64,000 nt of DNA from Bacteroidota bacterium (GCA_040386315.1 JAZKFS010000001.1:24099-88098); one strand, 5' to 3'; shown: positions 24,264-61,303, numbered from the stretch's first letter. Numbers and translations: made by a program. Notes: generated by a model not told the origin, from the sequence alone.

Positions 24264-24309
24264 AATATTTTTAAAAGAATTTTTTCAAAAGAAATCTTTT
24301 AAAAACCGC

Positions 24310-28357: not shown

Positions 28358-28579
28358 TCAAAGTCTTGCTTTACCTAAAACAATTACTCCTTTTGCATTT
28401 CTAACGATTTCATTTACATCAAAATCAACTAAATCAACTTTGTTATCAGGTATTACCTGCCCTCTATAATGCCATTCAGATTCTTCCTTAATTGCTACAG
28501 GTTTAAAGATCGGTTTGGTTATCCCAAGGTGAAGTCCCTGTTGAATAATAAAAAAACTGTACACCAAATCGCACTCCAT
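28358..28579 (-). pseudogene. Remnant of a FabA-like dehydratase domain C-terminus (fragment duplicated from the large pfa protein)
   Basis: The 73-aa ORF KPVAIKEESEWHYRGQVIPDNKVDLVDFDVNEIV...VLGKARL matches EPIAIMEETEWHYRGQVTPDKKLISIDFEVREVL...VMGESRL in ORF 29886..36971. There is no N-terminal domain and no proper start. Confidence 0.6.
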
Positions 28580-28752
28580 GATTTTTTAAAACACCATCGG
28601 GTTCTAATTTTCAAACACTACGCTAATGAAACTTCCTATTTTTCTATCATGAGAAAAGAAATTTTTTAATATATAATAGAGTTTGCGCCAGATCCGAAAC
28701 AAACTTTAGGTTACTTTCCATTATATGTATTATTTATTTTAAAAGACCCCTT

Positions 28753-29856: not shown

Positions 29857-29885
29857 CTATTGCTACTCTTACGTTTAATTTAGTT

Positions 29886-36971: not shown

Positions 36972-36983
36972 ATTTCTGCTTTA

Positions 36984-39092: not shown

Positions 39093-39232
39093 CTTAGTGG
39101 TTGTACCAACTGTGTGAAATAACCTTTCCAGCTGTTTGGCTATACCTTGATCATCTTCTACTATGTATAAGATATCCGCTTTTTTCCAGCTGGTATATCC
39201 AAATCCATTATCAGCTATCGGCGCACGGGAAA

Positions 39233-43501: not shown

Positions 43502-43502
43502 A

Positions 43503-45119
43503 TTAATTAAGTTTTAATTCAGTTGGTATATAAAAAAATGCTTCTTCCCCAATTGATACCCCATAGGTTTTTAACTGGTATGCTTTCGTTATAATTGCAG
43601 CCCCTTCTAATAGATTTAACGCTACTTGTTGCACTCTGCGGTTTTCAACTGATTCCAAGAATGTTCCTTTCACCCATTGATTGAACGCTCCCATTGCAGG
43701 ACCGCACCAGATCTGATAATCGAGTTGGCGTTCCTTGACTTCCTGCATTGGCCACTGACTTGACTTCCCTATGTACCATCTGAAAAGCAAGGCCATTTTA
43801 TGACGCGGATCCGTTGCCGCACGTTCTATTTGTGAAGGTTCTACTTCTCTGAAAAAGGCTTCAGTGTCTTCCCAAATTCTATTTATCGGAGATTTAAATA
43901 TTTCCCTTTCCAGTTTTACCTTTTCTTTTTCCGGCAGCTCTTCAATGGATTTATAATTGATATATAGATTATACAGGTAATTTCCTCGCTGAGGCATCAG
44001 TGTGCCGCGTTTCAATACCTGAACTTTTACGCCTTGCTCAAACATGTCTGCACAGGCTGTTAATGCAACATCTGCAAGCCCTGCTTCTCCCAGCATCTTC
44101 TTTCCGGCTTTCGACATGCCTGATTCAATACAGGATTGATGTACGGAACCTATGCAAACATAAGCAGCACCTAATGCATACGCAGAGGCCACTGCTGATG
44201 GTGTTCCAAGTCCTCCTGCAGCACCTACCCTTGGCCATGTTTCATATCCGAATTTTTCGCACAGGTTATTTCTTAATTGTAAGATCTCTGAAAATAAAGG
44301 CCCCAAGGGTCTTCCATCGGTATGTCCGCCTGAATCGGATTCTACTGTGATGTCTTCTGCTATGGGAAGATTTTTCGCTAAGGCGGCTTCTATGACAGAA
44401 AGTTTTCCTTCAGATACCAGACTTTCTAAGATCTCATAAGGAACAGGTGTTAAAAAGTGCATTGCAACTTCAGATCGTGAAATTTTTGCAAAGACATGGT
44501 TCATGCGGATCATACTTCCGTTAGTATCCTGTCTGAGGCCTTTAAAAGCGAAATGAACAATAGCAGGAGATAACCCCTTGAAAGCAGCTGTTTCTATTTT
44601 ATTTACTCCATTTCTTAGATAAAGATCAACGATAGCTTCTTCAAGTGCAGGCTCATTGGGTGTATGAATCAAGTTCATTCCCCATGATAGACCTTGAGGA
44701 TGCAACCGGTCTTTGAGAGTATTGATTTCTTTTTGTAAGCGTTCGAGCGATAATCCTGCTGATCCAAAAAATCCTAACATACCGCTTTCTGCCAATGCAA
44801 TTACCAGATCTGATGAACCTATTCCTCTGGCCAAAGCACCACCTACGTAAGAATAACGTACCCCATGCACCTGCTGAAAAGAACGGTCTCCAAGCCATTC
44901 GGGATAGATGGCAGGTAGAATGCCTATAAGCTGATAATCTGTAAGATGATTTTTGATTTCAGTACTTAACTCCCCATCAAAGCCTAAACCGTATTGTTGG
45001 GTGGCTTTGTTGAAAATAACGATATGTGCTTTTCTGATAATTCTTGCATGATGAACCATGCCGGAATAGTCAAAAATAGGCTCAGTTTCTTTGTTTCTCC
45101 AATAGCCAATAATTTGCAT
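43503..45119 (-). CDS. PfaD-family trans-acting enoyl reductase (NMO/FMN-dependent)
   Basis: It has the size (538 aa) and motifs of PfaD-type ERs (GMLGFFGSAG, GGHTDGRP, TIM-barrel FMN region). It lies immediately upstream of, and adjacent to, the PfaA-like gene. Confidence 0.8.
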   Translation of the reverse strand: MQIIGYWRNKETEPIFDYSGMVHHARIIRKAHIVIFNKATQQYGLGFDGELSTEIKNHLTDYQLIGILPAIYPEWLGDRSFQQVHGVRYSYVGGALARGIGSSDLVIALAESGMLGFFGSAGLSLERLQKEINTLKDRLHPQGLSWGMNLIHTPNEPALEEAIVDLYLRNGVNKIETAAFKGLSPAIVHFAFKGLRQDTNGSMIRMNHVFAKISRSEVAMHFLTPVPYEILESLVSEGKLSVIEAALAKNLPIAEDITVESDSGGHTDGRPLGPLFSEILQLRNNLCEKFGYETWPRVGAAGGLGTPSAVASAYALGAAYVCIGSVHQSCIESGMSKAGKKMLGEAGLADVALTACADMFEQGVKVQVLKRGTLMPQRGNYLYNLYINYKSIEELPEKEKVKLEREIFKSPINRIWEDTEAFFREVEPSQIERAATDPRHKMALLFRWYIGKSSQWPMQEVKERQLDYQIWCGPAMGAFNQWVKGTFLESVENRRVQQVALNLLEGAAIITKAYQLKTYGVSIGEEAFFYIPTELKLN

Positions 45120-45904
45120 AAAATATTATGTAATTAAGTATTCAGACTAAATTATTGTGAAAATTGTCGGCAATATGCTAGCAGACATCTGCAAGTGATA
45201 ATTTTACATGTGTAATACAACACGTTACGTGTAAAGCACTTGCAATTCTGATACGGGTACAAAAATATAGGAAGAATGAAAACTATAACTACTAAATAAC
45301 TACCAATAATTTTGCATCTAATTAGATACCAACGAGTTACGAAGATTTTAAAGCTATACAAGAAACTTTAAAATGTATTAGGGTAGAATGCTATATTCTT
45401 AGGTAATGTAGTTGATTCAACGAGTTACAACAACAAAAAACCTGTAAGCCGTTGATTTACGAGAGTTTAACTGGTGGGATTAGAGGGACATCTCGAACCG
45501 CATGTAAGACCGCACTGTAGCTTGCTTCAATTTTATAATTTTATTTTTGCCGTTCGTTTGCAGAATACCCAATTGAATCTACTACTTTAAATAATATTCC
45601 ATAACCATTCTTAAAAAAGTGAGGAATTTGCGCTGCTCTTTAGCCGGATTCCAGCCCTGGGAGAGATCCCTCCTCGCCCACTTTTTTATTCTTGCAAGAC
45701 AACTACTTGCAACGAAATTTTTCTCCATAAAAAAACTACAACATTAATTATTTTTGCAAAAACAACTGTGCCTGTTTATCATTTCTTTTATATAAAAATG
45801 AAGAAGTAAAAACTTTTAAAAACAGACATATTTTCTCGTATGGTAATTTGTTGTAGTTTTATAATCCAACTGTATATTGGTACATCCTTTATCACTTTTT
45901 TACG

Positions 45905-47614
45905 ATGGTTATGGCGCAATCTTCTCACGATAAAAAAGCTCAACAGGCGCGTTTACAATATATCAATAATTTTGCTGATACAAATCATTCGAGTGACCCG
46001 GCGGAGTGTATTCACCTGATGGCGGAAGCTGCTGAAATATATCGTGAGGAAGGGGAGTTCCATCTTCAAGCCCGGAGCTTGTGGCGGCAGGCATTCAGTA
46101 TGCGTGAGCTGCTACAGTTTGAGGAGATCGTGCCTGTCCTGGAATCCGCGTTTGAGATTTGCATTAAGCATGGTTTTAAAAGGGAATGTGCGAAGATCTG
46201 TGGTGAACTTGGCAGCATGTACCAGATCTTAGGAAATTTTACAAAGTCTAGAGAGAATATTCAGCGTTCACTTGATGGATATCGTGAATTAAACGATGTG
46301 GAGCGTCAAGTAATTACACTTTCTGATTTTGCAAACCTGAACGTCGCAGAGGGTAAATTCACCGAAGCATTACAGCATTGCAATGCTGCTTTCCTGATCT
46401 GTGAGGAAAATAGCATTGATCTACCCGGGCTCCTATGGGTCATTAAAGGTGTTATTTTTTCCAGCATTGGCGATGGACAAAGAGCGCTTGACGCTTATGT
46501 ACAATCATTGGAAATTACGCGGCAGGATCCTCTTTCAGAAATTACCGGCATGACGCTCTCCGCAATGGGCGAGCTCTACTGGCATAAAGGCGAGCCGGAA
46601 ATTGCGCTTGAATACATGAAGGAAGGCATTAAGGAGTATCGGCGAACAAAATGTCCCGATGAGGAAATGTGGCTGCTGTGTAATGTGGCGGGAGTGCTCA
46701 CGGAACTGAATCGAGTAGATGAAGCTGAGGAATATATAGCTAAGGCATCAAATATTTTAAAAGGCCGCGAAATTCCTGCTGCAATGCTGCCGGTGCTTAC
46801 TGCAAGCGCTAAGCTTCAACAGGCGAAGGGAAATCCCGATGAAGCACTCAGGATTTTACACGAAGCGCTCATGCTTTCGGAACAACTGAATGAGTTCAAC
46901 GCGCGTACCCGGATATTTCTGGAGAAGGGACGCCTTCACACAGGAAGTGAACAAGAGGGGTTTTTAAAAAATGCGCTTGCTATGAGCCAGATAAGCGGTC
47001 AGAAACAAATGAATTATAACATTCATTTTGCATTATACGAATATTATCAGAATCAGGGCGACAGCTTTCAGGCGTTAGAGCATTTTAAAACATATCAGCT
47101 TTTAAAAGATGAAATGCTTGCCGAGAAAACGCGCCTCCAGATGGATATTTTGAAAGTAGAAAATGAGATGCAGAAGATTATAAAAGAAGCCGAAGACAGT
47201 AAGATCAAACTAAAAGAACTCACATCTGACCTAATACAGCGAAATGAGGTATTGTCCGAGATCAGGAAACTAGCCCAACACGGACTTCAGCAAAAAGGCA
47301 TTATTCAAAAGAAAAGCTTGTCCTCAATAGTGCGAACTACTGAGGCCGGGGCCACTTCATTCTGGAAACAACTCGAAGAGCGTTCGGAGCTAATCGACAA
47401 ATCGTTGTCAGAAAAGGTTCTTGATCTGTGCCCGGATTTTACCTCTATCCAACTTCGCATCCTCACGCTTTTAAAAGCCCGTCTCTCCAATAAAGAAATT
47501 GCACAATTACTTTTCATAACAGAAAGAGCCGTCGAATACCACCGCACGGTGATCCGGAAGAAACTTCACCTGAGCACCACGACAAATATATCGGCATATC
47601 TCAGTACACTATAA
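45905..47614 (+). CDS. TPR-repeat + LuxR-type HTH transcriptional regulator
   Basis: It has an N-terminal TPR-like helical repeat region and a C-terminal GerE/LuxR HTH (LSNKEIAQLLFITERAVEYHRTVIRKKL). It is divergent from the pfa operon across a 780-bp AT-rich region. Confidence 0.75.
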   Translation: MVMAQSSHDKKAQQARLQYINNFADTNHSSDPAECIHLMAEAAEIYREEGEFHLQARSLWRQAFSMRELLQFEEIVPVLESAFEICIKHGFKRECAKICGELGSMYQILGNFTKSRENIQRSLDGYRELNDVERQVITLSDFANLNVAEGKFTEALQHCNAAFLICEENSIDLPGLLWVIKGVIFSSIGDGQRALDAYVQSLEITRQDPLSEITGMTLSAMGELYWHKGEPEIALEYMKEGIKEYRRTKCPDEEMWLLCNVAGVLTELNRVDEAEEYIAKASNILKGREIPAAMLPVLTASAKLQQAKGNPDEALRILHEALMLSEQLNEFNARTRIFLEKGRLHTGSEQEGFLKNALAMSQISGQKQMNYNIHFALYEYYQNQGDSFQALEHFKTYQLLKDEMLAEKTRLQMDILKVENEMQKIIKEAEDSKIKLKELTSDLIQRNEVLSEIRKLAQHGLQQKGIIQKKSLSSIVRTTEAGATSFWKQLEERSELIDKSLSEKVLDLCPDFTSIQLRILTLLKARLSNKEIAQLLFITERAVEYHRTVIRKKLHLSTTTNISAYLSTL

Positions 47615-48200
47615 ATATTTTTACGTAGTTTTTAAGATTGTTTTAAAATCTCACGAAACCATTGCTACTAAAGGACAGACCAATTTCTTGCTGGTCATTT
47701 AGTAGTGACATCTATTATCTTGCACCCATAAGAATTGCATGAGTATTATTCACACTGCGATTCACATCTTTATTAATTACGTAGAGGGTGTCGTAATGCA
47801 ACACACAAAAGGAATCGCCGAAACAACTCGTTTAAATTTTTCATATGTCCACGGTTCGTGAAAAATGCAAAAAAGTGAACACTTATAAAATTGACAACGC
47901 TTTATTATGTTATAACAGAACAGGGTAGATTAAACCGGATAAACAGAAAATAGATATTGTAATAATAAAATTGATAAAAGCCGTATGTATTCAGCGGTTA
48001 AAGGTAGCAAAAGACTGGTAAGTTAAAATTAACTGTTATAAGGGAACTTTCCAGTCGGTTCGAGCGCACATCTAGGCAACCTACTGAGTTAGAAATACCA
48101 AAAGCATTAATGAAAAAAAGTAATTTAATTCAAAATTTCCTTGGTCTAATTTTGGTCTAATAACTTTAAAAACCTATCAAATTTTCCAAATTTCGAGGCT

Positions 48201-48253
48201 TACCTTACTCCTACGAATCAGAAGGTTGTAAGTTCGAATCTCGCCGGGTGCAC
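48201..48253 (+). mobile_element. Direct repeat of the 3' 43 nt of tRNA-Arg(ACG) (att core; right boundary of the pfa insertion), preceded by TGGTCTAAT arm-type direct repeats
   Basis: ctacgaatcagaaggttgtaagttcgaatctcgccgggtgcac is identical to tRNA-Arg positions 32-74. Upstream are tggtctaattttggtctaata repeats (48138-48160). Downstream is a terminator hairpin (aaagcccttgaac..gttcaagggcttttt). Confidence 0.75.
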
Positions 48254-48510
48254 ACATCAAAAGCCCTTGAACACTAAAGTTCAAGGGCTTTTTACGTTTT
48301 AAAAATCTCCTTTTAGTTTTGTTTTAAAAACATTTGAAATTGGCAGGAATCGTATGCGTTTGGTGATTGCGCACTTCTTTTTTAACTTCGCTACACTAAA
48401 CGTATACTCTCTTATCAATACCTATTGTATCTAGCAATCCCCCTATTCACTTTAGTTTACGCTTTTAGTTTCAAAAATTACTTTCGCTATTTTATATCTG
48501 ACATGTCCCT

Positions 48511-51500
48511 ATGAAACAACTTTTACTTAGCCTCATACTTTTGCTTAGCGCAAATATTTTGCCTATACCAGCACAGCCAAACATGAAACTGGTCAGCACC
48601 AACCCAACCACCGGTGATGCGGACTCTCTATATTATGCTAAAACAAAGTATCGCCTGGTCGGACCCTTTCGTGGTGGCAGGAGTGCGGCAGTAACGGGAA
48701 GCTTTAAAAACAAAAACACTTTCTACTTTGGTGCTACCGGCGGCGGTGTTTGGAAGACAACCGACGGCGGTAGCAACTGGAAAAATATTTCTGATAAATA
48801 CTTTGGGGGTTCTATTGGTGCGGTAGCGGTAGCACCAAGCGATGAAGGAACCATATATGTAGGAGAAGGCGAGAACACACTTCGTGGAAATGTAGCCGAA
48901 GGCTTCGGCATCTGGCGCAGCGACGATGGTGGAAGAACCTGGCGGAATCTCGGTTTGAACGATACCCGGCACATCACACGCATTGTTATTCATCCACGGA
49001 ATCCGGACATTGTGTGGGTATCTGCTTTAGGTCATCTTTTTGGTCCTAATCGTGAAAGAGGTATTTATAAAACCATCGATGGCGGTAAGACATGGAAGAA
49101 TGTCTTGTTTGCAAATGATAAGGCCGGTGGTTTTGATCTTGTTATGGAGCCGGGTAATGTCTCTACATTTTATGCTACTACGTGGAATGTAAAAAGAACT
49201 GGTTATAGTTTAGAAAGCGGCGGCGAAGGCAGCGCATTATGGAAAAGCATAGATGGCGGCGAAACATGGAAGAACCTGATGGATAAGAAAGGGCTTCCAA
49301 AAAATGAAACGATCGGTATCATTGGTGTTACTGTTAGCGCTGTTAGTCCTGATCGTGTCTTTGCAATTATCGAAGCAAAAAATGGTGGACTGTTCCGAAG
49401 CGATGACGGCGGCGAAACATGGACGAAGACAAGTGAAGACGCAAACATCAGGCAGAGAGCATGGTACTTCAGCCGCATTTTTGCTGACCCTAAAAAAGAG
49501 AATACTGTTTATGCATTAAACGTAGGCATGTACAGGAGCAGCGATGGTGGTAAAACATTTCAGCCGATTGCTACACCACATGGCGATCACCATGATCTAT
49601 GGATTGATCCCGAAGATCCAAACAGGATGATTGTTGGTGATGATGGCGGAGCACAGGTAAGCTTTGATGCCGGTGCAAACTGGAGCACCATGGACAACCA
49701 ACCTACGGCACAATTCTATCGTGTGTCCGCCGATAATCATTTTCCTTATCGCATACTTGCTGCACAGCAGGACAATACAACCGTTCGAATCCTGAGCCGT
49801 TCCAACGGCCGCGGCATTACCGAAAGCGACTGGTCACCTACTGCAGGATTTGAAAGCGGCTATGTTGTGGCTGATCCAACTAATCCTGACATTGTCTATG
49901 GTGGTAATTATGGCGGCTATATCTCACGAATGGATCACCGGACCGGCGAAAACCGTTCCGTAAGCGTTTGGCCTGAAAGTCCTATTGGTTCGGGCGCCGA
50001 TGTTTTAAAATATCGTTTTCAATGGAATTTCCCCCTCTTCTTCTCGCCCCACAATCCAAAGCGCCTGTATGCGGCAGGTAATCATCTTTTCGTAACGGAA
50101 AACGAAGGGCAGAGCTGGCAGGAGATTAGTCCCGATCTTACTACGAATGATAAGAGCAAGCAGGGGCCGAGCGGTGGGCCAATTACGAATGACAATACAA
50201 GTGTAGAATATTACTGCACCATTTTTACTGCGGCGGAGTCTGCTTTGGAAAAAGACCTTCTCTGGGCAGGTAGTGATGATGGGTTGATACATGTAAGCCG
50301 GTATGCAGGCAAGAATTGGCAAAATGTAACTCCACCGGCCGCAGGCAAATTTATGATGTGGAACTGTGTGGAAACGGATCCTTTTAAAAAAGGAAGCGCG
50401 TACGTTGTCGGGACAAAGTACAAAAGCGATGATTTTACGCCATATATCTACAAGACAGAAGACTACGGAAAATCATGGCGCTTAATTACCAGCGGTATCA
50501 ATAGTATGCACTTTGCAAGGGCTATCAGGGCAGACAAAAAAGTGCCGGGCGTGTTATATGCAGGAACTGAATTTGGCATGTACATTAGCTATGACGACGG
50601 TGCCAACTGGAAGAGATTCCAGCTAAACCTTCCTGTTGTTTCTATTACTGATTTGTTGGTTAAAGAAAATGATCTTATCGTAGGTACACAGGGAAGATCA
50701 ATTTGGATACTTGACGACCTGACTTTTGTGCAACAAAGAAAACAGGCAACCACAGAAAAGAGAATGCAGATATTTCCCGTTAATGATGTGTATAGAACTG
50801 AAGGTATGCAGGACCTGAATGTAAAGAATGCCGGCTTCAATCCGATCAATGGAGTCGTTTTCAATTACTTTCTAAAAGATACTGTTAATGCGCCAAAGCA
50901 TTCGATTACCATTCTTGATAAAAAGGGGGCTGAAATAAGGACTTTCAGCAAAGATGCAAAAGACACGAGTAACAGGTTAGATTTTAATGAAGGTATGAAC
51001 CAGTTCATATGGGACATGACGTATGCTCGTGCCGATAAAATAGAAGGAATGATACTGTGGAACGGGTCTGTAGGTGCACCTAAAGCAGCACCGGGAATGT
51101 ATACCGCCCGTTTCCGGTATGCAAAAGATTCTATCGATATGCCATTTGTGATAAAGGCGGATCCTAACTATAAAATGACTGAAGCCGAATATGATGAACA
51201 GGTTGCTTTCCTACTAAAAATAAGAGACAAGTTCTCAGAAGTTCAAAAAGCAATCAAAAACATCCGGCTTATACGAACGCAATTAAACGACTTCATATCA
51301 AGAGCAGATAGTTCAGGTAAAGAACTAAAACCGCTTGCTGACAGCATCAACAAGAAGATGACAGCAGTCGAAGAGGCTTTATACCAGACAAAAGCAAAGA
51401 GCGGCCAGGACTTACTTAATTATCCAATCCGCCTCAATGATAAGATCTCCGGCATTTTCGATTATGCGTCAAGCGGTAATAATGCACCTAACCAGCAGGC

Positions 51501-51636
51501 AATAGAAAGCTTCAACTATCTAAGCGGCGAAGCTGACAAGCACCTCAATGTCCTGAAGCAGGTCATGGAGAACGAAATAAAACAGTTCAACCAGCTCATT
51601 TACCAAAAGCAGCTACCTGTCATCGGGGTGCAATGA
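48511..51636 (+). CDS. Secreted BNR/Asp-box repeat (sortilin/VPS10-like) protein
   Basis: A signal peptide is present. There are many SxDxGxTW Asp-box repeats (TTDGGSNW, SDDGGRTW, TIDGGKTW, SIDGGETW, SDDGGETW, SSDGGKTF, ...). Confidence 0.7.
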   Translation: MKQLLLSLILLLSANILPIPAQPNMKLVSTNPTTGDADSLYYAKTKYRLVGPFRGGRSAAVTGSFKNKNTFYFGATGGGVWKTTDGGSNWKNISDKYFGGSIGAVAVAPSDEGTIYVGEGENTLRGNVAEGFGIWRSDDGGRTWRNLGLNDTRHITRIVIHPRNPDIVWVSALGHLFGPNRERGIYKTIDGGKTWKNVLFANDKAGGFDLVMEPGNVSTFYATTWNVKRTGYSLESGGEGSALWKSIDGGETWKNLMDKKGLPKNETIGIIGVTVSAVSPDRVFAIIEAKNGGLFRSDDGGETWTKTSEDANIRQRAWYFSRIFADPKKENTVYALNVGMYRSSDGGKTFQPIATPHGDHHDLWIDPEDPNRMIVGDDGGAQVSFDAGANWSTMDNQPTAQFYRVSADNHFPYRILAAQQDNTTVRILSRSNGRGITESDWSPTAGFESGYVVADPTNPDIVYGGNYGGYISRMDHRTGENRSVSVWPESPIGSGADVLKYRFQWNFPLFFSPHNPKRLYAAGNHLFVTENEGQSWQEISPDLTTNDKSKQGPSGGPITNDNTSVEYYCTIFTAAESALEKDLLWAGSDDGLIHVSRYAGKNWQNVTPPAAGKFMMWNCVETDPFKKGSAYVVGTKYKSDDFTPYIYKTEDYGKSWRLITSGINSMHFARAIRADKKVPGVLYAGTEFGMYISYDDGANWKRFQLNLPVVSITDLLVKENDLIVGTQGRSIWILDDLTFVQQRKQATTEKRMQIFPVNDVYRTEGMQDLNVKNAGFNPINGVVFNYFLKDTVNAPKHSITILDKKGAEIRTFSKDAKDTSNRLDFNEGMNQFIWDMTYARADKIEGMILWNGSVGAPKAAPGMYTARFRYAKDSIDMPFVIKADPNYKMTEAEYDEQVAFLLKIRDKFSEVQKAIKNIRLIRTQLNDFISRADSSGKELKPLADSINKKMTAVEEALYQTKAKSGQDLLNYPIRLNDKISGIFDYASSGNNAPNQQAIESFNYLSGEADKHLNVLKQVMENEIKQFNQLIYQKQLPVIGVQ

Positions 51637-51773
51637 TGAAGATGCTAAAATACTGCGGCGCAATACTTCTTTGAGCGTTTCTGAAAATGAAATCAAACTG
51701 AATGTACAAGAGATATATAATTCCGGTGATGCCTTAGCTTCGAGTATTTACTAAACCAAATTATGCAGACCAA

Positions 51774-51806
51774 AGAGAACTCCTGGTTTTACAGGAGTTC
51801 TTTTCT
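51774..51806. terminator. Bidirectional terminator hairpin between the convergent BNR gene and pnkp
   Basis: aagagaactcctg-gttttac-caggagttctttt. Confidence 0.6.
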
Positions 51807-51815
51807 AATCTTCTG

Positions 51816-54368
51816 TTAGAGCCGCGGATCCACTGGCTCACTCTCTAATGCAAGTACTCCAAAGACACACTCATGGACTCGCCGTAATGGTTCTTTTAAA
51901 ACAAATCTTTCCATTGCCTCCACACCCAACGCAAATTCCCGCAAAGCAAGCGAGCACTTACCAGAAAGGCCTCGAGAGCGCAACCGTTCGAGATTTTTAG
52001 GGAAATCATATTCAGGCCCATAAATAATCCTCAAATACTCTCTCCCGCGACACTTTACAGCTGGCTGAATTAGGCCTCGTTTTCCTCGTGCTATAAAATC
52101 CAGAGGTTTGACGACAGCTCCCTCGCCTCCTGCATTCGTCATAGATTCCCACCACATGATTGCATCAGCAACGGTTTCTTCTTTTTCAAAATCCACAATT
52201 TTAAAAGCAGTTTTAAAAAAGAATTCCGCGTCTGTTGAGCACAATTGCGCGATAGTCTCCATGTGCCAGAGGTGGTTTTTGTCCGTGTGAACAGTGCCTT
52301 CCGTTGCCAGAATGTGAAATGGCGCAAGTCTTATCCCTTTTAAAGAATCCACAGGCCAGCAGTAATTGCGATAGGATTTTGTGTAATCCTCCACAGCTTC
52401 CTGTCTGTTTTTAAAATGTGCTGAAAGCTCGCCAACGTCCAGCCCGTTTTCCAACGCCGTTTTTAAAACGCTGTTTGCAGCTTCGAGCGAATGTTTTGCG
52501 GCAGCACCGACGGTGGCATACTGCGTTTTTAAAAGCTCCTGCGCTTTGGCTGACCACGGCAGAAGCTCGCAGTCGAGGCAAATCCAGTCTGTTTTTAAAA
52601 CGTCCCACAGCCCGGACGTTTCCATTCCGTCAGTAACCTTTTTTAAAAACTCCTTTTCAAGATTTTTCTCGGTAAAAAACGGCCTTCCAGTCCGAGTATA
52701 GCATACTCCAATTTCATCTCCATTAATACCAAATCGTTTTTTAGCGGAGGCATTATCACGACATACGATCACAACAGCACGAGAACCCATATGTTTTTCC
52801 TCGCATATCACTGAAGGTACTCCCTCTTTCCGATAATAGGCAAGTGCTTCCTCAATATGCTCAAGATAATCCTCTCGCTTACTGGTTTCACTCGGTGACA
52901 TTGTTGGTGGAAGATACATGAGCCATTTGGGATTCACTGCAAAACGACTCATAAGCTCAAGAGCTGCAATAGAATTTTCTTCCCTGATCGTAACTGTATG
53001 ATGCAGTTTCGTGGGAATAATTCGTTTTCCTGAGATGTCGGACAAATCCAGAATGTCGTCTGCCTCAAAGGGAGTCGTTCCTGCTTGCAGCTGGTCATAC
53101 CCAATCGGTTTTGATGGTATGGCATATTGATTTTTAGCCTGAACATGAACAATTTCACGCTCAGGGTACCGAAGCGCGGAAAGCTTTCCGCCGAACACAC
53201 ATCCAGTATCAATATTCATCGTATTGTTGAGCCACACAGCTTCAGGGACTGGAGTATGTCCATAGACTACCATCGACTTTCCACGATATTCCGCTGCCCA
53301 GTTCAACCGTACTGGAAGCCCAAATTCATCCGTTTCTCCTGTCGTTTCGCCAAAAAGAGCAAAATCACGAACCTTCGCTGAGCCTCTTCCCTGCAATTCC
53401 TCTTTTATTCCTGCATGAGCTACAACGAGTTTTTCATTATCGAGGACATAATGACTAATAAGCCCATCAATGAACTTTGCAACCCTCTCAGAAAATTCTT
53501 TTGGCCGTTGCTCAAGCTGCTCCAAAGATTCAGCCAGTCCATGGGCAATCTTGACATTCCGCCCTGTTAGTTTTTTCATGAGCTTAATATCATGGTTACC
53601 TGGCACGCACAAAGCTATGCCAGACGAGACTGAGTTCATAACCAGTTCCAGGACTTCCGGTGTTTTCGGTCCACGATCTACAAGGTCACCCAGGAAGATG
53701 ATTTTCCTGCCGTGTGTCGCTGTAATATCCGGTCCGTTATCAGTATCTATGACCTTGTAATCAAGCTTCGTCAGTAATTCCACCAATTCATCATAGCAGC
53801 CATGAATATCACCGATAATATCAAACGGGCCATGTTCGTGTGAACGATTATTCCATAGAGGTTTTCGGGTGATTTGCACTTTTTCTACGGCTTCCTGTGA
53901 ATCCAGAACATACGTAAAGCGAAAACCCTCCCGCTTTAAAGCTTTAAGTGAACGTCTCAGTTGATGGCGCTGCTGCGGTATAACATGAGAGCCAAAATTC
54001 CTGTCAGAACGCATCGCGTTTCTATCTAGACATACTCTTTCCGGCATATCAAGCACAATTGCTACCAGATGGCAATGATATTGCTGAGCAAGCATAAGCC
54101 ATGATTTTCTGGCTTCCGGCTGCACATTTGTTGCATCAATGACCGTCAGGCGTTTAGCAGAAAGACGCTTTGCAGTTATATACTGCAATACATCAAAAGC
54201 GTCCTTTGTAGCCGCCTGATTATTTTCATCATCCGACACCAGCCCCCGGCAATAGTCCGATGACAGGATTTCAGTCGGTAAGAAATGCTTCCTTGCAAAT
54301 GTTGATTTTCCTGACCCTGAAGCTCCCATAAGCACCACAAGGCAAAATTCCGGTAATTCTATGTTCAT
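51816..54368 (-). CDS. pnkp: Polynucleotide kinase-phosphatase Pnkp (RNA repair): 5'-kinase - metallophosphoesterase - C-terminal adenylyltransferase/ligase-like domain
   Basis: The P-loop is VVLMGASGSGKST. The calcineurin-type phosphatase motifs are GDIHGC, GDLVDRG and GNHD. The C-terminal nucleotidyltransferase motif is I-like (EEKHMGSR, KxxGxR). The protein is 850 aa, and its start overlaps the hen1 stop by 1 nt. Confidence 0.85.
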   Translation of the reverse strand: MNIELPEFCLVVLMGASGSGKSTFARKHFLPTEILSSDYCRGLVSDDENNQAATKDAFDVLQYITAKRLSAKRLTVIDATNVQPEARKSWLMLAQQYHCHLVAIVLDMPERVCLDRNAMRSDRNFGSHVIPQQRHQLRRSLKALKREGFRFTYVLDSQEAVEKVQITRKPLWNNRSHEHGPFDIIGDIHGCYDELVELLTKLDYKVIDTDNGPDITATHGRKIIFLGDLVDRGPKTPEVLELVMNSVSSGIALCVPGNHDIKLMKKLTGRNVKIAHGLAESLEQLEQRPKEFSERVAKFIDGLISHYVLDNEKLVVAHAGIKEELQGRGSAKVRDFALFGETTGETDEFGLPVRLNWAAEYRGKSMVVYGHTPVPEAVWLNNTMNIDTGCVFGGKLSALRYPEREIVHVQAKNQYAIPSKPIGYDQLQAGTTPFEADDILDLSDISGKRIIPTKLHHTVTIREENSIAALELMSRFAVNPKWLMYLPPTMSPSETSKREDYLEHIEEALAYYRKEGVPSVICEEKHMGSRAVVIVCRDNASAKKRFGINGDEIGVCYTRTGRPFFTEKNLEKEFLKKVTDGMETSGLWDVLKTDWICLDCELLPWSAKAQELLKTQYATVGAAAKHSLEAANSVLKTALENGLDVGELSAHFKNRQEAVEDYTKSYRNYCWPVDSLKGIRLAPFHILATEGTVHTDKNHLWHMETIAQLCSTDAEFFFKTAFKIVDFEKEETVADAIMWWESMTNAGGEGAVVKPLDFIARGKRGLIQPAVKCRGREYLRIIYGPEYDFPKNLERLRSRGLSGKCSLALREFALGVEAMERFVLKEPLRRVHECVFGVLALESEPVDPRL

Positions 54369-55765
54369 TAATGTATTCTCCTTTTAAAAACAGCCATTTG
54401 TGTCGGCGAGCCCAAATCCTCATTCACTTCACCAACCGTGAAAAAGTCTGCTTCGTAGCCGTATTTCGCTCCAACCTGATGAGCCCACGCCTGAAACTGC
54501 TGACGCGTCCATTCAAACCGGTGATCCTTATGCCTGAATTTTCCTGCCGGCAACGTTTCAAAAAGTGCATTATACTCTGCATTTGGAGTCGTAACAATCA
54601 CTATTCCAGGTTTTGAAAATCCGAATACATTGCGCTCAAGAGCCGTTAATCTATCTTCATCTAAATGTTCAATTACTTCAATGATTGTCGCAACATCATA
54701 GCCCTCAAGACGCTTGTCACGATAGACAAGAGACGAGTGCAGAAGCTGTATGCGCTGTCGCTGTTTCTCCGGCAGCATATCTAATCTCAAGCGTTTTGTA
54801 GCAATCTCCAGCGTCCGGTAGGAAACGTCCATTCCTACGATCTCAGTAAATTGTTTATCACCTAGAAGCATTTTTAAAAGATTGCCTTCTCCACAGCCAA
54901 GATCCAAGACTCGAGATGCTCCGGTGCCTTTTACTTGTTCAAATACACTCTGCATCCGTATATCATTGAGCCGTAGCTTTTTCTCTACCTGTTCTTCTTC
55001 CTGTGCATGCTCTTCTTCCTTTTCAGCAATCACCGATTCATCAGGTATTAATCTTTGTAGTGCCTCATTTGCCAGAGCTGCCCTATGTTTCAGATAACGT
55101 TTTGTGATGAGTTCCTTTTCAGGATGTGACGCTAGCCAGCCATCTCCTTTGCGGAGGAGTTTTTCCAACTCACCCGTATCTACCCAGTAATGCTTTTCAT
55201 CATCCAGTACTGGGATAAGTACATAAAGATGATTAAGCATATCCTGAACTCTACACACGCCCCAAATTTGAACATCGAAATACCGGCTGTCACCCCACTC
55301 GGGAAATTTCTCATCCAGGGTGAGGCGTTGAGCCTTTACAGTATAACCAAGTGGTTCAAAGAGATTTTTCAGTACAGTCTCGCCACCCCTGCATGGTAGA
55401 ACCGGTATAGCTACAGTAAGTGGAATCGCTGTTTCAGCAAGCTCCTGCCTGTCCTTGCTTCTGCCGCCCATCGCCGTTCCGAAAACCTGCGCCAGCGCCA
55501 CGCTTAAAAACGACGATGCTGCATACGGCCTGTCATTCACATATTGTTGGAGTGCAAATGCCTGCTCGGATTTTTTCCGCACAAGCCCCACCGGGTCAAC
55601 ATCTATGAGTAACGCCGCTGTGCACCTCTTCTCCGTAGCTTCAGGATAGAAAATATGCGCCTGACCAAAGCTCAAATTTGTTGTTTGAACCCGTGCGGGA
55701 TTTTTATGAAGCAAAAAACCCAGGTCTGTTGCGGGCTGATGCGTTGTTGTTATTGTAAGAAGCAT
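54368..55765 (-). CDS. hen1: 3'-terminal RNA ribose 2'-O-methyltransferase Hen1 (bacterial)
   Basis: The protein is 465 aa with the N-terminus MLLTITTTHQPATDLGFLLHKNP. The C-terminal SAM-MTase motif is VLDLGCGEGNLLKML. It is translationally coupled to pnkp. Confidence 0.8.
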   Translation of the reverse strand: MLLTITTTHQPATDLGFLLHKNPARVQTTNLSFGQAHIFYPEATEKRCTAALLIDVDPVGLVRKKSEQAFALQQYVNDRPYAASSFLSVALAQVFGTAMGGRSKDRQELAETAIPLTVAIPVLPCRGGETVLKNLFEPLGYTVKAQRLTLDEKFPEWGDSRYFDVQIWGVCRVQDMLNHLYVLIPVLDDEKHYWVDTGELEKLLRKGDGWLASHPEKELITKRYLKHRAALANEALQRLIPDESVIAEKEEEHAQEEEQVEKKLRLNDIRMQSVFEQVKGTGASRVLDLGCGEGNLLKMLLGDKQFTEIVGMDVSYRTLEIATKRLRLDMLPEKQRQRIQLLHSSLVYRDKRLEGYDVATIIEVIEHLDEDRLTALERNVFGFSKPGIVIVTTPNAEYNALFETLPAGKFRHKDHRFEWTRQQFQAWAHQVGAKYGYEADFFTVGEVNEDLGSPTQMAVFKRRIH

Positions 55766-55809
55766 ATGTGATTCAGCTTTTAAAAAGCGTTTTTATGTTT
55801 TTAAAAAAT

Positions 55810-57186
<1,377 letters not shown>

Positions 57187-57198
57187 TTAAAAGTAATT

Positions 57199-58143
57199 TT
57201 ACAAATCCAGCACTTGAAATTCCGAAATCCTAAATTCCTTTCTTTTTACAAGTTTTGGTTCTTTTAAAAGAAATTCCGGCTTTTCCTTCGTGCTTTTAAA
57301 ACAAAACCTGCGCGGCAAATCTGTATAAATTGAGCGAGGCGGCTTTTTATAACTAATGTCTTTTAAACGATTCCCGCTTTCATATTCATGGTAAAAAATC
57401 CTGCGGATTCCCATTTCCTCGCGGATAAACCACAGCGCAGCGGCCAGCATCGCCTCATCCCAAATCTTCACATGCGGTTTTAAAACGTCTTCTACATACG
57501 TGTGCAGATTTCCCGAATTTACACGATTGCGATGTGTCAGCTGACGCACACGAACACGATTATCGTCGAGTGATTCCACCACTTCCACCGTTGTGCTTCT
57601 ACGCAGTGCCACACGAATCCAGTCATTTTGGATTTCCTCTATCAACGCCTCGCCCGTCGTCAGGTCGAGGTCAATCCGTGCCCACGCCATCGTGCGCCGT
57701 TCACCACCTGCAATCGGATGGCATGAATATTCAAACGGATGGTAATCTTTCGGCTTTATCATCGAAGTATAAGCGCGATTGTGTCCGGCATTGAAATTCA
57801 TTTGCAGAACGATATTCAATCCCGCGCGCGTTTTTTGAGCACCCCATTGTAAGCCGCGTCCCCATTGACCAACTGTCAACGTGTACGATTCAAAGCTCTC
57901 CGGCCACTTCATTTCAAAAAGCTCTGGATAAAGCATTCCGTCCGGTGCCAAAGCAATCAGCTCCCGAACGTCTTTCTTCTCCAGCAAACCTTTAAAAGGC
58001 GTGGCCTTAATATCGCGCACATGTTTGCGCTCTTTCGTCAGATATTGCAAAATCTGGCGCGCGTATTTATCCCGAAAATAATAGAATACCGTCCGCCCCG
58101 GCGTCAGGCACTCGATAATTTCCCTGTATTCTTTTTCTGTCAT
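57199..58143 (-). CDS. Hypothetical protein (314 aa) embedded in the RNA-repair cluster
   Basis: The ORF is uninterrupted and co-oriented with the cluster, 25 bp upstream of the rtcB-like gene. No motif was recognised. Confidence 0.4.
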   Translation of the reverse strand: MTEKEYREIIECLTPGRTVFYYFRDKYARQILQYLTKERKHVRDIKATPFKGLLEKKDVRELIALAPDGMLYPELFEMKWPESFESYTLTVGQWGRGLQWGAQKTRAGLNIVLQMNFNAGHNRAYTSMIKPKDYHPFEYSCHPIAGGERRTMAWARIDLDLTTGEALIEEIQNDWIRVALRRSTTVEVVESLDDNRVRVRQLTHRNRVNSGNLHTYVEDVLKPHVKIWDEAMLAAALWFIREEMGIRRIFYHEYESGNRLKDISYKKPPRSIYTDLPRRFCFKSTKEKPEFLLKEPKLVKRKEFRISEFQVLDL

Positions 58144-58542
58144 AAAAATAGATTATTCTGTCGTTTTTAAAAGTTATTTTTTTCACATTTCCGCAGCTAA
58201 TCCGCGGTTTTAAAAGTTTGTTTGTCCCGCTACCGGGCAGATAATTTTGTCTTAGAATTGTCATTGGATGTTTCCTCCGTTTTGGATTTTTAAAAGAAAA
58301 ACCCGCTCCTGCACGAAGCAAAAGCGGGTTTTAAAAGTTGAAAATTTTAAAAACACTACCTTCGCTTCAGACACAATACACCACGCCCATCCCGCTTTTG
58401 CAGCAGATTTATCGCGTGGCTATATTGTTCAATAAAGGAGCGCATTGTTTTTAAAAGTAATTGCTTATAAAAAAAGTAATAATTCATTGTACCTGCCGAA
58501 AACAGGTTTCCCGCAGGTACAATTTTTAAAAGCCTAGCGAAC

Positions 58543-59976
58543 TCAGTTTTTAAAAGAAACCGAGCTAATTTTCTCAATCATCGAAGCTTTATCTGTTTCC
58601 ATCAGCTTCATGATGTCGAAAATTTTATCTGAAAATCCGGCCGTGCAGAATACTTTGTTTTGAGGCAATTGCAGTGTTCCATAGCCTTGCAGATCAAATG
58701 AATAGACAAACGGGTCAGCGCCAGTACGGCGTTTGTACGCTGTGAATTCGTTTGCCGGAGTGTCATTGCCAATCCAGCCCTGCATGTCTGACAAGATGAT
58801 GATGCGGTCGTATTTTCTTTTCGCCTTTTGAAAGATCGCGTGGAAGTTTGTACCTCCCATCGCAAATTTTATCGAACGCGCAATCGTTATTGTGCTGTCG
58901 CCAATATTCACGTTTTTGTAGGCCGCATCATCGGAAAATGTCATAAAATCAGCATTGTTGGATTTCACCAGGATTGCCGAAAACAGCGAACCGATTTCAG
59001 CCGGTTTTCCCGCCATCGAACCCGAAACATCCAGTACAACAAGCGTTTCGCCATCGAACTTCGGAACGTTATTCAGTGAAATGTCAACCGCCGTATTCAG
59101 CGCTTGCAGCACCTCGCGAACAACTTTCCCGCTGTCCATTTTTAAAACTTCCTCGTACGCCGTTGTAAAGCGGAACGGCAGAACAAGTGATTTTTTAATC
59201 AGGCGCTCGTTCGTCAGCATTTCCAGAGCTTCGCCGATGACGTCAGGTGCCTGCGTAATGATATTGCGCAAGTTTCGCAAAAGTGCAAAGTAGCCGATTT
59301 TTCGCGAGCGAATCAGCTCCGTCCACGCTTCGTTTTTAAAAACGGCTTTTTGCTCGTCGTTTTCAGCTGTTTGTCCGGTTTTTGTCAGCGCGGATTCCCA
59401 TGTACCTGTTGAGCGAAGTTCATCTTTAATCAATGCCGAAATTGCTTCAGCATTTTTCTCAACCGGCACCGGGTGAACCAGATTCACAACATCTACAAGT
59501 TTAAAATCTTTAGATGCCGCACGGTATTTACCCAGCTGGTAGCTATCGAAACGTTCGAATGCTTTTGCAAAACCTTTTTTCATTGAGTTCGGCACTTTAC
59601 CGTTCGTCGCTGTGTGGTATGCCAGGATTTCCATCATGTCATCCGGACGGAATACAACCGCGCTGTAAAAATCCTTCGCCCACACCTGTCCGCCGATGTG
59701 CTTTGCCAGCTCTGAAGCGACCACATGCGAAATCGTACGCATACCAAATTCCGTTCGCGCAAAAATGGCTGCCTTCGCGACGAACTCCTTGTCGCAGAGT
59801 GCGATGAGATTTTTCAATCGCTCTAAGCCGTCATGCTGGCTTCTGTAAAACTGGTCTTTCACGAACGACGTGACCAGCATCGAAACCAGTTCGAGTTCAG
59901 GCGACTGCTTGTACGCATCACCGCCCGCGAAGTTTTTGACTTTTGCCAAAGCTGTTGAAAAATTAAATCGTGCCAT
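58543..59976 (-). CDS. rsr: Ro60-related protein Rsr (TROVE domain + C-terminal vWA domain)
   Basis: It has a TROVE-like N-terminal region and a C-terminal vWA domain with the MIDAS motif LVVLDVSGSM. It sits immediately downstream of the tRNA-like ncRNA array. Two terminator hairpins follow the gene (58488-58525, 58290-58330). Confidence 0.65.
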   Translation of the reverse strand: MARFNFSTALAKVKNFAGGDAYKQSPELELVSMLVTSFVKDQFYRSQHDGLERLKNLIALCDKEFVAKAAIFARTEFGMRTISHVVASELAKHIGGQVWAKDFYSAVVFRPDDMMEILAYHTATNGKVPNSMKKGFAKAFERFDSYQLGKYRAASKDFKLVDVVNLVHPVPVEKNAEAISALIKDELRSTGTWESALTKTGQTAENDEQKAVFKNEAWTELIRSRKIGYFALLRNLRNIITQAPDVIGEALEMLTNERLIKKSLVLPFRFTTAYEEVLKMDSGKVVREVLQALNTAVDISLNNVPKFDGETLVVLDVSGSMAGKPAEIGSLFSAILVKSNNADFMTFSDDAAYKNVNIGDSTITIARSIKFAMGGTNFHAIFQKAKRKYDRIIILSDMQGWIGNDTPANEFTAYKRRTGADPFVYSFDLQGYGTLQLPQNKVFCTAGFSDKIFDIMKLMETDKASMIEKISSVSFKN

Positions 59977-60037
59977 TATGCACCTCCTCTAAAAAATATG
60001 GAAACATGGCTTTTTAAAAAGCCGGGGAATCAAAAAA

Positions 60038-60112
60038 ACGGCAGAGAAAACTGCGGGAGTTCTACTGGGCGATTTAGCAAATCGAAGTAACTCAAAGCCG
60101 CATCACTACTGC
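60038..60112 (-). ncRNA. Y-RNA-like repeat unit A (short form, lacks a tRNA-like module)
   Basis: It shares the unit ends (GGCAGAGAAAA ... CACTACTGC) and the internal CGAAGTAACTC motif with units C-F. Confidence 0.35.
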
Positions 60113-60138
60113 TTTTAAAAAGACAATTTTAAAAATAA

Positions 60139-60222
60139 GAGGCAGAGAAAATTCGCGTGGAATTTAGGGCGAATTAAAAGTTCGCTGCTTTAAAGCGATG
60201 TATTCCGCGTGTCGCTACTGCC
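60139..60222 (-). ncRNA. Y-RNA-like repeat unit B (short form)
   Basis: It has the same terminal motifs (GAGGCAGAGAAA ... CGCTACTGCC) with complementary ends. Confidence 0.35.
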
Positions 60223-60235
60223 TTTTTAAAATAAA

Positions 60236-60362
60236 TGACGGAGAAAATGGGGTAAGGCTGTGCTTTACCAATTTAGCTACCAACGGAGTTTTAAAACCCC
60301 GATGGACTGGACTCGAACCAGCAATGACTTACGTCGAAGTAACTCACCTTTCACTACCGTCA
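60236..60362 (-). ncRNA. Y-RNA-like (YrlA-type, tRNA-mimic) unit C
   Basis: The minus strand reads GACGGTAG..GAGTTACTTCG..CTGGTTCGAGTCCAG-TCCATCGG..CCGTTGG-TA-GCTAAATTGGTAAAGC..CTCCGTCA. That is T-arm, then 3' acceptor strand, then a short linker, then 5' acceptor strand plus D-arm. The acceptor strands are complementary (6/7), and the unit ends pair (GACGG/CCGTC). Confidence 0.45.
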
Positions 60363-60392
60363 AACTTTTAAAAATGAAAGAACAAAAAATAA

Positions 60393-60532
60393 AGAGGCAG
60401 AGAAAGTTTATGTAGGACTTTTTCGTTGCTCTACCAACTGAGCTATATTCAGAATTTTAAAATCTGAACAGCCGGACTCGAACCGGCGACCCACGGCACC
60501 CTAAGCGAAGTAACCCACATATCGCTACTGCC
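60393..60532 (-). ncRNA. Y-RNA-like (tRNA-mimic) unit D
   Basis: The T-arm is GCCGGTTCGAGTCCGGC. The 3' acceptor strand TGTTCAG pairs with the downstream CTGAATA, which is followed by TA-GCTCAGTTGGTAGAGC (D-arm). Confidence 0.45.
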
Positions 60533-60547
60533 TTTAAAAAAACAAAA

Positions 60548-60692
60548 TGACGGAGAAAATCTGAGTGAGTAAGCTGCTCTACCAACTGAGCTACATCCCC
60601 ATTTTTAAAAACTTAAATCAGAGGAGATGGCGGGACTCGAACCCGCGACAGGCCGCGTGATAAGCGAAGTAACCCACTCGTCGCTACCGTCA
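60548..60692 (-). ncRNA. Y-RNA-like (tRNA-mimic) unit E
   Basis: The T-arm is GCGGGTTCGAGTCCCGC. The 3' acceptor strand CATCTCC pairs (with one G.U) with the downstream GGGGATG, which is followed by TA-GCTCAGTTGGTAGAGC. The unit ends are TGACGG/CCGTCA. Confidence 0.45.
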
Positions 60693-60703
60693 AAAAAATA
60701 CGT

Positions 60704-60833
60704 GATGGAGAAAGTTTACAGGAGTTGTTAGGCGAAACGCTCTAACCTTTGAGCTATATTCCGTTAGCTGGAACAGCCGGACTTGAACCGGCAACGTTTT
60801 CGTACGAAGTAACTCGCCGTATCACTACCATCA
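60704..60833 (-). ncRNA. Y-RNA-like (tRNA-mimic) unit F
   Basis: The T-arm is GCCGGTTCAAGTCCGGC. The 3' acceptor strand TGTTCC pairs with GGAATA, which is followed by TA-GCTCAAAGGTTAGAGC. The unit ends are GTGATGG/CCATCAC. Confidence 0.45.
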
Positions 60834-61252
60834 CATTTTCCAAAGAACATTTTTAAAAGCAAAAAACCCACCTTCGCGAATCTTGCAAAGGTGGGTTTTC
60901 AAAAAGATGAAACCGCTCTATATGTATTGCTACACTACCTCTGCTTTAGACAAAACCCTTCCTGACTGCCAAGCATATGCTTGCGGTCTATCACGGGATT
61001 ATATGTTGCTAAAGTGAGGCGCATTGTTTTTAAAAGTAATTATCGTCGTGTTTGTAAAATTGAGTTGCAAACCTACAAAGGTTTTTTACAAAGTCAAATT
61101 AATTTTTTGTCATAATGCAAATAATTATAAGACTTCACATCGGTAAGTTTTACATTGTGATGCTAAAGAAGTATTTAAATTTGATATTTCTCTGGTCTAA
61201 TACAGGTCTACTGGTTCAAGAAATCCCTTAAATTTACCAGATTTCACCACAT

Positions 61253-61303
61253 ACCTTACTCCTACGAATCAGAAGGTTGTAAGTTCGAACTCGCCGGGTG
61301 CAC
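61253..61303 (+). mobile_element. Second direct repeat of the tRNA-Arg 3' half (att core with a 1-nt deletion) with upstream arm-type repeats
   Basis: ctacgaatcagaaggttgtaagttcgaa-ctcgccgggtgcac. It has the same 10-nt upstream context (taccttactc) as the 48.2-kb copy. TGGTCTAAT / AGGTCTACT repeats lie at 61190-61215. A terminator hairpin follows. Confidence 0.7.

Follow-up and report, generated by a model that had tools for sequence, protein, structure and literature searches.

Our analysis of a 64,000-nucleotide stretch of DNA from a Bacteroidota bacterium (GCA_040386315.1, JAZKFS010000001.1:24099-88098; hereafter the window, to whose numbering all coordinates refer unless a relative is named) showed an intact tRNA-Arg(ACG) gene followed, on the same strand, by two displaced copies of its 3′ half. 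We put a probability of roughly 0.6 on the reading that two related integrative elements accreted in tandem at this tRNA gene and that both integrases were then lost. Two islands of the type known as cis-mobilizable elements (CIMEs) would have been left: island A (24385-48210), with a pfa gene cluster, and island B (48254-61261), with an RNA-repair cluster. The copies have every sequence-level property of displaced 3′ fragments of a tRNA gene (tDNA), that is, of attachment (att) sites of the attR type.

Two tRNA genes were located in the window with ARAGORN and Rfam: tRNA-Leu(TAA) at 18117-18201 on the minus strand and tRNA-Arg(ACG) at 24310-24384 on the plus strand, the latter scoring 64.9 bits against the Rfam tRNA model. 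The final 43 nt of tRNA-Arg(ACG), CTACGAATCAGAAGGTTGTAAGTTCGAATCTCGCCGGGTGCAC, run from the anticodon loop to the 3′ end (24342-24384; repeat family D4) and would constitute the att core. This core recurs, also on the plus strand, at 48211-48253 (fragment 1; 43/43 nt identical) and at 61262-61303 (fragment 2; 42 nt, with one T of the T loop deleted and 0 substitutions), at distances of 24 and 37 kb from the tRNA-Arg gene. The original prediction, an earlier reading of this DNA, had placed fragment 1 at the same coordinates and had started fragment 2 one base off, at 61263. Identity to the tRNA begins exactly at base 1 of the anticodon loop, CTACGAA, which is a canonical crossover sublocation (class A in PMC4383910). 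A 28-nt core pattern, searched with up to 3 mismatches, matched three times in the window, each time in tRNA-Arg or its fragments, and 0 times in 100 shuffles. Both segments are thus bounded by core copies. In our reading the intact gene would be the attL-type junction, fragment 1 the junction inside the array as well as the attR for island A, and fragment 2 the distal attR.

Each fragment is preceded by DNA resembling a P arm, and an arm-plus-core module stands at the right end of both islands. Arm 1 (48114-48210, plus strand; island A) and arm 2 (61165-61261, plus strand; island B) are identical at 68 of 97 positions (70%) without gaps. The 10 nt of shared upstream context noticed in the original prediction, TACCTTACTC, were found directly 5′ of both cores (48201-48210 and 61252-61261); the homology in fact extends over about 97 nt. 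The next 100 nt upstream of the arms are 33% identical, the DNA 3′ of the three cores is 24-40% identical, and the arms share 19-22% identity with the tRNA 5′ half. The direct repeats that had been reported in homologous upstream arms were present as well. In arm 1, TGGTCTAAT occurs in two exact copies, at 48142-48150 and 48153-48161, and in arm 2 it occurs at 61193-61201, its second copy there reading AGGTCTACT (61204-61212); all these repeats are on the plus strand. Exact TGGTCTAAT was found in 3 copies in 64 kb, in the arms only. The blocks conserved between the arms are TGGTCTAAT (9/9), GGTCTA 11 bp later, AAATTTnCCAnATTTC, and TACCTTACTC abutting the core. The TGGTCTAAT and GGTCTA repeats, 11 bp apart, lie at an equal distance from the core in both arms and occur nowhere else in the window. 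We regard the TGGTCTAAT repeats as putative arm-type binding sites of an integrase.

The arms differ at 29 of 97 positions and the cores at 0 of 42 aligned positions (Fisher p = 8e-6). Since the arms have diverged and the cores carry no substitutions, divergence of the arms would have preceded integration. This contrast suggests that the two modules are att sites of two related, distinct elements and not the product of a local duplication. A local duplication would be expected to decay evenly, while two attP sites, each constrained to match the same tRNA, would give exactly the observed pattern. The only alternative for the contrast is gene conversion of the cores by the tRNA gene.

It is very improbable, in our judgement, that the repeats are not att sites and represent instead partial tandem duplications or pseudogenes of the tRNA, or tRNA-like pieces of the Y-RNA array in island B. 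Although fragment 2 is 420 bp from that array, whose RNAs have tRNA-like domains, both fragments consist only of the 3′ 43 nt from the anticodon loop onwards, are preceded by mutually homologous non-tRNA arms, and stand at the distances given above. The same segment, moreover, is the attP core in corynephages. Tandem duplication of the tRNA gene, which the original prediction had named as fatal to its own proposal, and a pseudo-tRNA were both ruled out by the register of the fragments and the homology of the arms. Fragment 2 was rejected as a part of the Y-RNA array, because the Y RNAs are encoded on the other strand and their T arms differ in sequence. A stretch at 48040-48075 ('GGTTCGAGC') was rejected as a third tRNA fragment, since it has no T-stem complement.

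The lack of an integrase, also claimed earlier, was confirmed in the window regions that we examined with Pfam, NCBIfam and tblastn. Pfam gave no integrase in open reading frames (ORFs) of at least 150 aa across 24-64 kb, and the set of long ORFs that it covered in the left flank, which leaves aside two short ones, gave none either. The two largest ORFs, 29886-36971 (PfaC-like) and 39233-43501 (PfaA-like), were scanned with NCBIfam and gave no integrase, and ten of the larger stop-to-stop frames from the intergenic gaps of the array were likewise negative with Pfam. As neither PF00589 nor another recombinase was present in the scanned ORFs, neither island has the integrase that a tDNA island is expected to carry. 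No relaxase, type IV secretion system (T4SS) or integrase domain was found in any ORF scanned, which agrees with the loss of integration and transfer genes in CIMEs, and no remnants of the backbone of an integrative and conjugative element (ICE) or integrative and mobilizable element (IME) were found in the window. Among the gaps, only the Y-RNA region could accommodate an integrase gene. At 48008-48157 there is an ORF fragment with a 'KTGK' motif; it was rejected as an integrase relic, since it had no Pfam hit and left too little room for a catalytic domain.

Relatives of the locus were sought with MgtE, encoded beside the tRNA, as the anchor, among loci drawn from 185,579 species-representative genomes and the JGI metagenomes. 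Among these, synteny at tRNA-Arg was kept only in L002/L089, L030 and L100. In the closest relative, L002/L089, MgtE is 86% identical in amino acids and synteny extends over about 5-6 kb from tRNA-Leu to tRNA-Arg, with about 74% nucleotide identity between L002 and the window over 5 kb. To the left of the tRNA, synteny is also conserved in L030 and L100, which are more distant (55-56%). The DNA downstream of tRNA-Arg differs in all four lineages: the pfa island follows in the window, a type I restriction-modification system in L030 and aldehyde-oxidase genes in L100. In L002 the tRNA is followed by a terminator and then, within about 95 nt, by a 50-aa frame that reads towards the tRNA and aligns with the C terminus of Phage_integrase (PF00589 positions 135-170, E = 5e-4). 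The frames upstream of this 50-aa frame are broken, and the L002 integrase is therefore a pseudogene. This remnant is the sole hint of descent from an ICE or IME. It had no match in the whole window by tblastn, and a search for the cognate integrase with it returned only a self-match among 5.8 billion proteins and nothing in viral contigs. The L002 contig (DASPKH010000066.1) was deposited as 'Patescibacteria group bacterium'; its synteny and the 86% MgtE identity suggest that it is mis-binned or mislabelled.

Hairpins were also found next to the cores. The intact tRNA is followed by a terminator-like hairpin at 24388-24420 (plus strand; a 15-pair stem and then a T run in the terminator scan), at the left end of island A, without homology to the DNA after fragment 1 or fragment 2. 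The scan likewise called a terminator hairpin after fragment 1 (48259-48292, plus strand), which is homologous to the tRNA-Arg terminator of L002: blastn of L002 against the window gave 84% identity over 83 nt of core and hairpin, and one compensatory stem change was seen by eye. For fragment 2 the scan made no call, and a downstream hairpin with one mismatch was seen by eye only. Terminators after the cores are expected if the elements supply one for the regenerated tRNA. The L002 terminator is homologous to that of fragment 1 and not to that of the intact tRNA. Most simply read, the L002 element and island B would be relatives, of which island B no longer has the integrase that once lay 3′ of its terminator.

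The composition of the two islands is not uniform. The third-position GC content (GC3) of the pfa genes and the phosphopantetheinyl transferase gene in island A is 0.28-0.33, against 0.35-0.57 in flanking genes, and the tetranucleotide correlation of 24385-45200 to the left flank is r = 0.43. The TPR-LuxR gene has a GC3 of 0.447, and 45200-48210 has r = 0.77. Only the pfa block is thus clearly foreign in composition, and the TPR-LuxR end of island A is host-like. In island B, 48254-51743, which holds the BNR gene and its flanks, is intermediate (GC3 0.43, r = 0.60), while 51744-61261 has r = 0.90, with a GC3 of 0.40-0.52 over 51.7-61.3 kb. The atypical composition of tDNA islands is accordingly seen for 24385-45200 and not for 45200-48210 or 51744-61261. 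The original prediction had described the second segment as host-like, which holds best from 51744 onwards, the BNR part before it being intermediate. It had also offered an old, ameliorated island as an explanation, which we disfavour: amelioration of 13 kb should have left several substitutions in a non-functional core, and only one indel is found in fragment 2. Because that core has no substitutions, a compositionally similar donor is more plausible than an old ameliorated island.

A second direct-repeat pair was found at 24563-24604, about 180 bp after tRNA-Arg, and 51744-51785, 110 bp after the BNR stop codon (both on the plus strand; 35/42 identical; D19). A degenerate 34-nt pattern of this pair had two matches in the window only and 0 in 100 shuffles, and no further copy of the 42-nt repeat was found in the window or in 87 fetched loci. 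The copy at 51744-51785 forms the left half of the convergent terminator hairpin between BNR and PnkP, and the copy at 24563-24604 has no hairpin. The pair may be what is left of a shared backbone at the left end; in that case the block of terminator and BNR gene (48254-51743) would have come into island B later, by insertion or rearrangement.

These data bear on the main rival explanation, in which there is one recent pfa island (24385-48253) and an old scar; we consider it possible, though doubtful. Here the DNA to the right of fragment 1 would be resident chromosome that starts with the native tRNA terminator, arm 2 and fragment 2 would be the relic attR or attP that remains of an earlier element, most of which has been deleted or rearranged, and 48.25-61.3 kb would not be one mobile unit. 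The homology between the fragment 1 and L002 terminators, at 84%, is near the level of the flanking orthologous DNA, at 74%, and the match of 51.7-61.3 kb to the flank in tetranucleotide usage and GC3 also agrees with this explanation. So do the repeat pair at 24563 and 51744, which points to rearrangement, and the occurrence elsewhere of homologues of BNR (81-82%) and Rsr (about 70%) in unrelated contexts, one of them phage-like. Judged from the loci of these homologues, island B does not appear to be a conserved mobile unit. However, if fragment 2 arose by integration here, all DNA from the tRNA up to fragment 2 must have come in with elements or through later events, and resident DNA in that interval would need an extra inversion or translocation. 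The integrase remnant close behind the L002 terminator is what is expected for element-borne DNA, and the lack of substitutions in the fragment 2 core shows that it is not ancient.

The tRNA itself was then compared among the relatives. In the window, the tRNA-Arg gene has A at position 37, and its T stem, GTAAG/CTCGC, contains one A.C mismatch; the same sequence is present in all three core copies. The tRNA-Arg genes of L002 (1295-1369), L030 (7165-7239) and L100 (9469-9543) have G37 and fully paired T stems. The window and L002 genes differ at 1 of 32 positions in the 5′ part and at 6 of 43 in the 3′ part, an excess that would fit an element-derived 3′ half of the window tRNA-Arg. No G37-type tRNA-Arg fragment was found in the window.

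Several observations weigh against tandem accretion of two elements. Fragment 2, where the native 3′ half is expected, has A37 and GTAAG/CTCGC like the other copies and unlike the relatives. It may be element-derived too, with the native fragment lost or further away; other possibilities are a formerly longer array and a host tRNA that is itself of the A37 type. The original prediction had looked to related genomes for the empty site, and none was found in L002/L089, L030 or L100, where tRNA-Arg is followed by different DNA in each and L002 ends 1.3 kb past the tRNA. The right flank of the window, with DUF4440 and pirin genes from 61304 onwards, is likewise absent from these loci. Exact-protein look-ups of MgtE, S20, BNR and TPR-LuxR gave no records, and those of pirin, Rsr and PPTase gave only short Logan contigs of SRR26324626, which break inside the 43-nt repeat and hold no junction information; one Logan contig of the same organism (L001) breaks exactly at the fragment 2 repeat. 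No further member of the arm family was found in viral, metagenome or fetched loci: an exact scan of viral and metagenome contigs for the arm-core junction ACCTTACTCCTACGRATCAGAAGG gave 0 matches, the arm-repeat-plus-core pattern gave 0 matches in viral contigs, and the arm motif was found in none of 85 fetched loci. The DNA after the tRNA and that after fragment 1, the presumed P′ sides, have no homology, although the P arms are homologous. The fragment 1 terminator could be native and orthologous to that of L002, and the DNA to its right would then be resident. The host-like composition of island B, especially 51.7-61.3 kb, and of the TPR-LuxR gene within island A counts on the same side, and the unexplained repeat pair at 24563 and 51744 suggests further rearrangement. 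The original prediction of two related elements in tandem therefore stands in part. The att-type fragments, the contrast between arms and cores and the L002 integrase remnant speak for it, but no empty site was found in the available relatives, and it is from topology only that we infer island B to be one discrete element.

Tandem accretion would have proceeded as follows. In each element there would once have been an attP in three parts: an arm bearing TGGTCTAAT-type repeats, the tRNA sequence from the anticodon loop through the 3′ end, and a terminator of the element's own. A tyrosine integrase would have recombined attP with the tRNA gene, the crossover presumably lying within the anticodon-loop region. 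After integration the tRNA gene would again have been complete at the left junction, and the 3′ half that it had before would have come to lie at the element's right end. Happening twice, with related, non-identical elements, this would give the order tRNA, island A, fragment 1, island B, fragment 2, chromosome, and both integrase genes would later have been lost, leaving att-flanked islands. Island A was probably the later arrival, judging the order from its foreign composition and perfect fragment. The islands are presumably immobile at present and would be movable only with a cognate integrase from elsewhere in the genome or from an incoming relative.

Two further explanations also start from att sites. 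Instead of being dead relics, the islands may belong to a family of integrase-less cargo cassettes of an uncultured Bacteroidota lineage, whose arm and core sites still function and which an integrase encoded elsewhere moves in trans. This is unlikely; if it were true, the complete Ro60/six-Y-RNA/RtcB/PnkP-Hen1 module would be a mobile unit targeting a tRNA gene. It is also unlikely that the A-B tandem was built in another genome and entered as one 37-kb composite unit through its outermost att sites, with fragment 1 as an internal chimeric site. Transfer of whole composites of a CIME and an ICE has been documented (PMC5704250), and the three cores are nearly identical, but the pfa genes are foreign and the rest is host-like, which is easier to explain by separate origins and arrival. 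Sequence alone does not separate composite acquisition from accretion in situ.

The cargo of island A lies at 24385-48113, between tRNA-Arg and arm 1. By Pfam and NCBIfam, it comprises a 4′-phosphopantetheinyl transferase (PPTase; 24782-25432), genes of a pfa-type polyunsaturated fatty acid (PUFA)/polyketide synthase on the minus strand (25710-45119) and a TPR-LuxR regulator (45905-47614), together with a 367-aa orphan. By NCBIfam, PfaA (TIGR02813, 1160 bits) and PfaD (TIGR02814, 576 bits) were both above the cut-off; further members of the set are a PfaC-like KS-CLF-AT-DH2 protein and two KR-DH proteins. The PfaA domains are divided between two proteins: 39233-43501 has KS-AT and three tandem ACP repeats (repeat family D1), and the next one has KR-DH; a second KR-DH paralogue is at 25710-28145. 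A 75-aa frame at 28361-28585 (minus strand), which looks like a pseudogene fragment, is similar by eye to the PfaC-like protein in its last FabA-like dehydratase region.

The cargo of island B, between fragment 1 and arm 2 (48254-61164), begins with a BNR/sortilin-type protein on the plus strand (48511-51636). The minus strand then encodes PnkP (51816-54368), Hen1 (54368-55765), RtcB (55810-57174), orf314 (57199-58143; 314 aa, between RtcB and Rsr and with no Pfam or NCBIfam match) and the TROVE protein Ro60/Rsr (58543-59976), all but orf314 identified by Pfam. This co-oriented cluster (51816-59976) joins two RNA-repair systems, PnkP/Hen1 and RtcB, with Ro60 and Y RNAs. Directly upstream of rsr are six tandem Y-RNA-like genes (60038-60844, minus strand), recognized from sub-threshold matches to Rfam YrlA and from their folds. 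Four of them have tRNA-like domains, with YrlA scores of 46, 39, 33 and 28 bits (gathering score 69; E = 9e-9 to 1.6e-3), and two are short YrlB-like units (60135-60224 and 60038-60116). Each gene is closed by a GACGG/CCGUC or GGCAG/CUGCC terminal stem. Multiple YrlAs near rsr were already known (PMC4201824), and six Y-RNA-like genes in a row look unusual.

A Ro60 homologue that is 69% identical to that of the window was found in L086 (10001-11431; GCA_030841345.1, JAUPWY010614745.1), near NinG, a DnaB-type helicase and many small ORFs; this phage-like context fits carriage of Ro60 by phages. Island B also contains a 53-nt direct repeat, 75% identical, at 58410-58462 and 60989-61041 (D16), both copies ending in identical GCGCATTGTTTTTAAAAGTAATT. 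The first copy lies upstream, in the direction of transcription, of the orf314-RtcB-Hen1-PnkP genes and the second upstream of the Y-RNA array, and the repeat may be a shared promoter or regulatory element. Motifs centred on TTTTTAAAA recur at gene boundaries in many intergenic regions (for example 24268-24304, 56427-56445, 58162-58180 and 61025-61043) and dominate the short repeat families (D9, D13, D14 and D20, with several inverted pairs); they may represent a promoter or terminator element specific to the lineage. To the left of the tRNA genes, a type IIL restriction-modification enzyme of the MmeI family, in which all five MmeI domains are present, is encoded at 6669-9425 among housekeeping genes, and the local GC content dips to 0.32 at 8-9 kb.

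The structure is of a known kind and holds nothing conceptually new for integrative-element biology. It gives a clean example, in a barely sampled Bacteroidota lineage, of a tRNA gene accumulating cargo by repeated integration followed by integrase loss. Island finders that depend on an integrase would miss such an array. The interest of the array is mainly in its cargo: the pfa-type PUFA/polyketide synthase cluster is marked as horizontally acquired, and the array suggests arrival of the combined RNA-repair module (Ro60, Y RNAs, RtcB, PnkP/Hen1) as island cargo.

The array can be compared with four known systems. Like attP sites of the lambda type, the modules have a short core and, in one arm, a 9-bp motif repeated at a spacing of one helical turn about 50-70 bp from the core, and the motif is conserved between two diverged arms. 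Unlike them, no matching motif was recognized on the P′ side and there is no integrase for comparison.

With corynephages the array shares the target segment. A blastn search of 48100-48300 against phage and plasmid collections matched only at query positions 112-155 (the core, 43-44 nt of 201); temperate Corynebacterium phages gave these matches, with 84-86% identity over 44 nt, in DNA that has no annotation. Corynephage beta and related phages integrate into tRNA-Arg(ACG) genes, the attB1 and attB2 sites of C. diphtheriae. In corynephage beta the match is about 86 nt after tox, the known position of its attP, and in phage Poushou it is about 1.5 kb from a Y-Int gene. The 3′ part of tRNA-Arg(ACG), starting with the anticodon loop, thus recurs as an attP core. 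However, the host, arms and cargo are unrelated, and corynephages are functional phages with their own integrase.

Sublocation classes for integration into tDNAs are said to go back to Williams in 2002. In the Islander collection, the anticodon-centred class is the most common, with 2083 of 3919 islands, and 3′ fragments were found in 3760 of the 3919 (Hudson, Lau & Williams 2015; PMC4383910). Like Islander islands, those described here have an intact tRNA and a displaced same-strand 3′ fragment at each island end, the layout by which tDNA islands are mapped; their fragments start at the anticodon loop (class A), and they measure 24 and 13 kb and form a tandem array at one tDNA. Islander needs an integrase gene in each island; neither has one here, and that pipeline would therefore discard the array.

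CIMEs and site-specific accretion were first described for the relatives of ICESt1 and ICESt3 in Streptococcus thermophilus (Pavlovic 2004, Bellanger 2011, via PMC5704250), and a route in three steps, in which an element integrates, decays to a CIME and is joined by a second element, has been described (PMC5704250). The present array differs from the S. thermophilus CIMEs in its uncultured Bacteroidota host, in its tRNA target, and in that both members lack an integrase, so that there is no functional partner in the array; no conjugation or mobilization remnants that would establish an ICE or IME ancestry were identified. In the remaining respects they are like CIMEs: they are att-flanked, their integration and transfer genes are gone, they lie one behind the other, as related elements, where the target gene ends (3′), and their internal junction is a chimeric att site.

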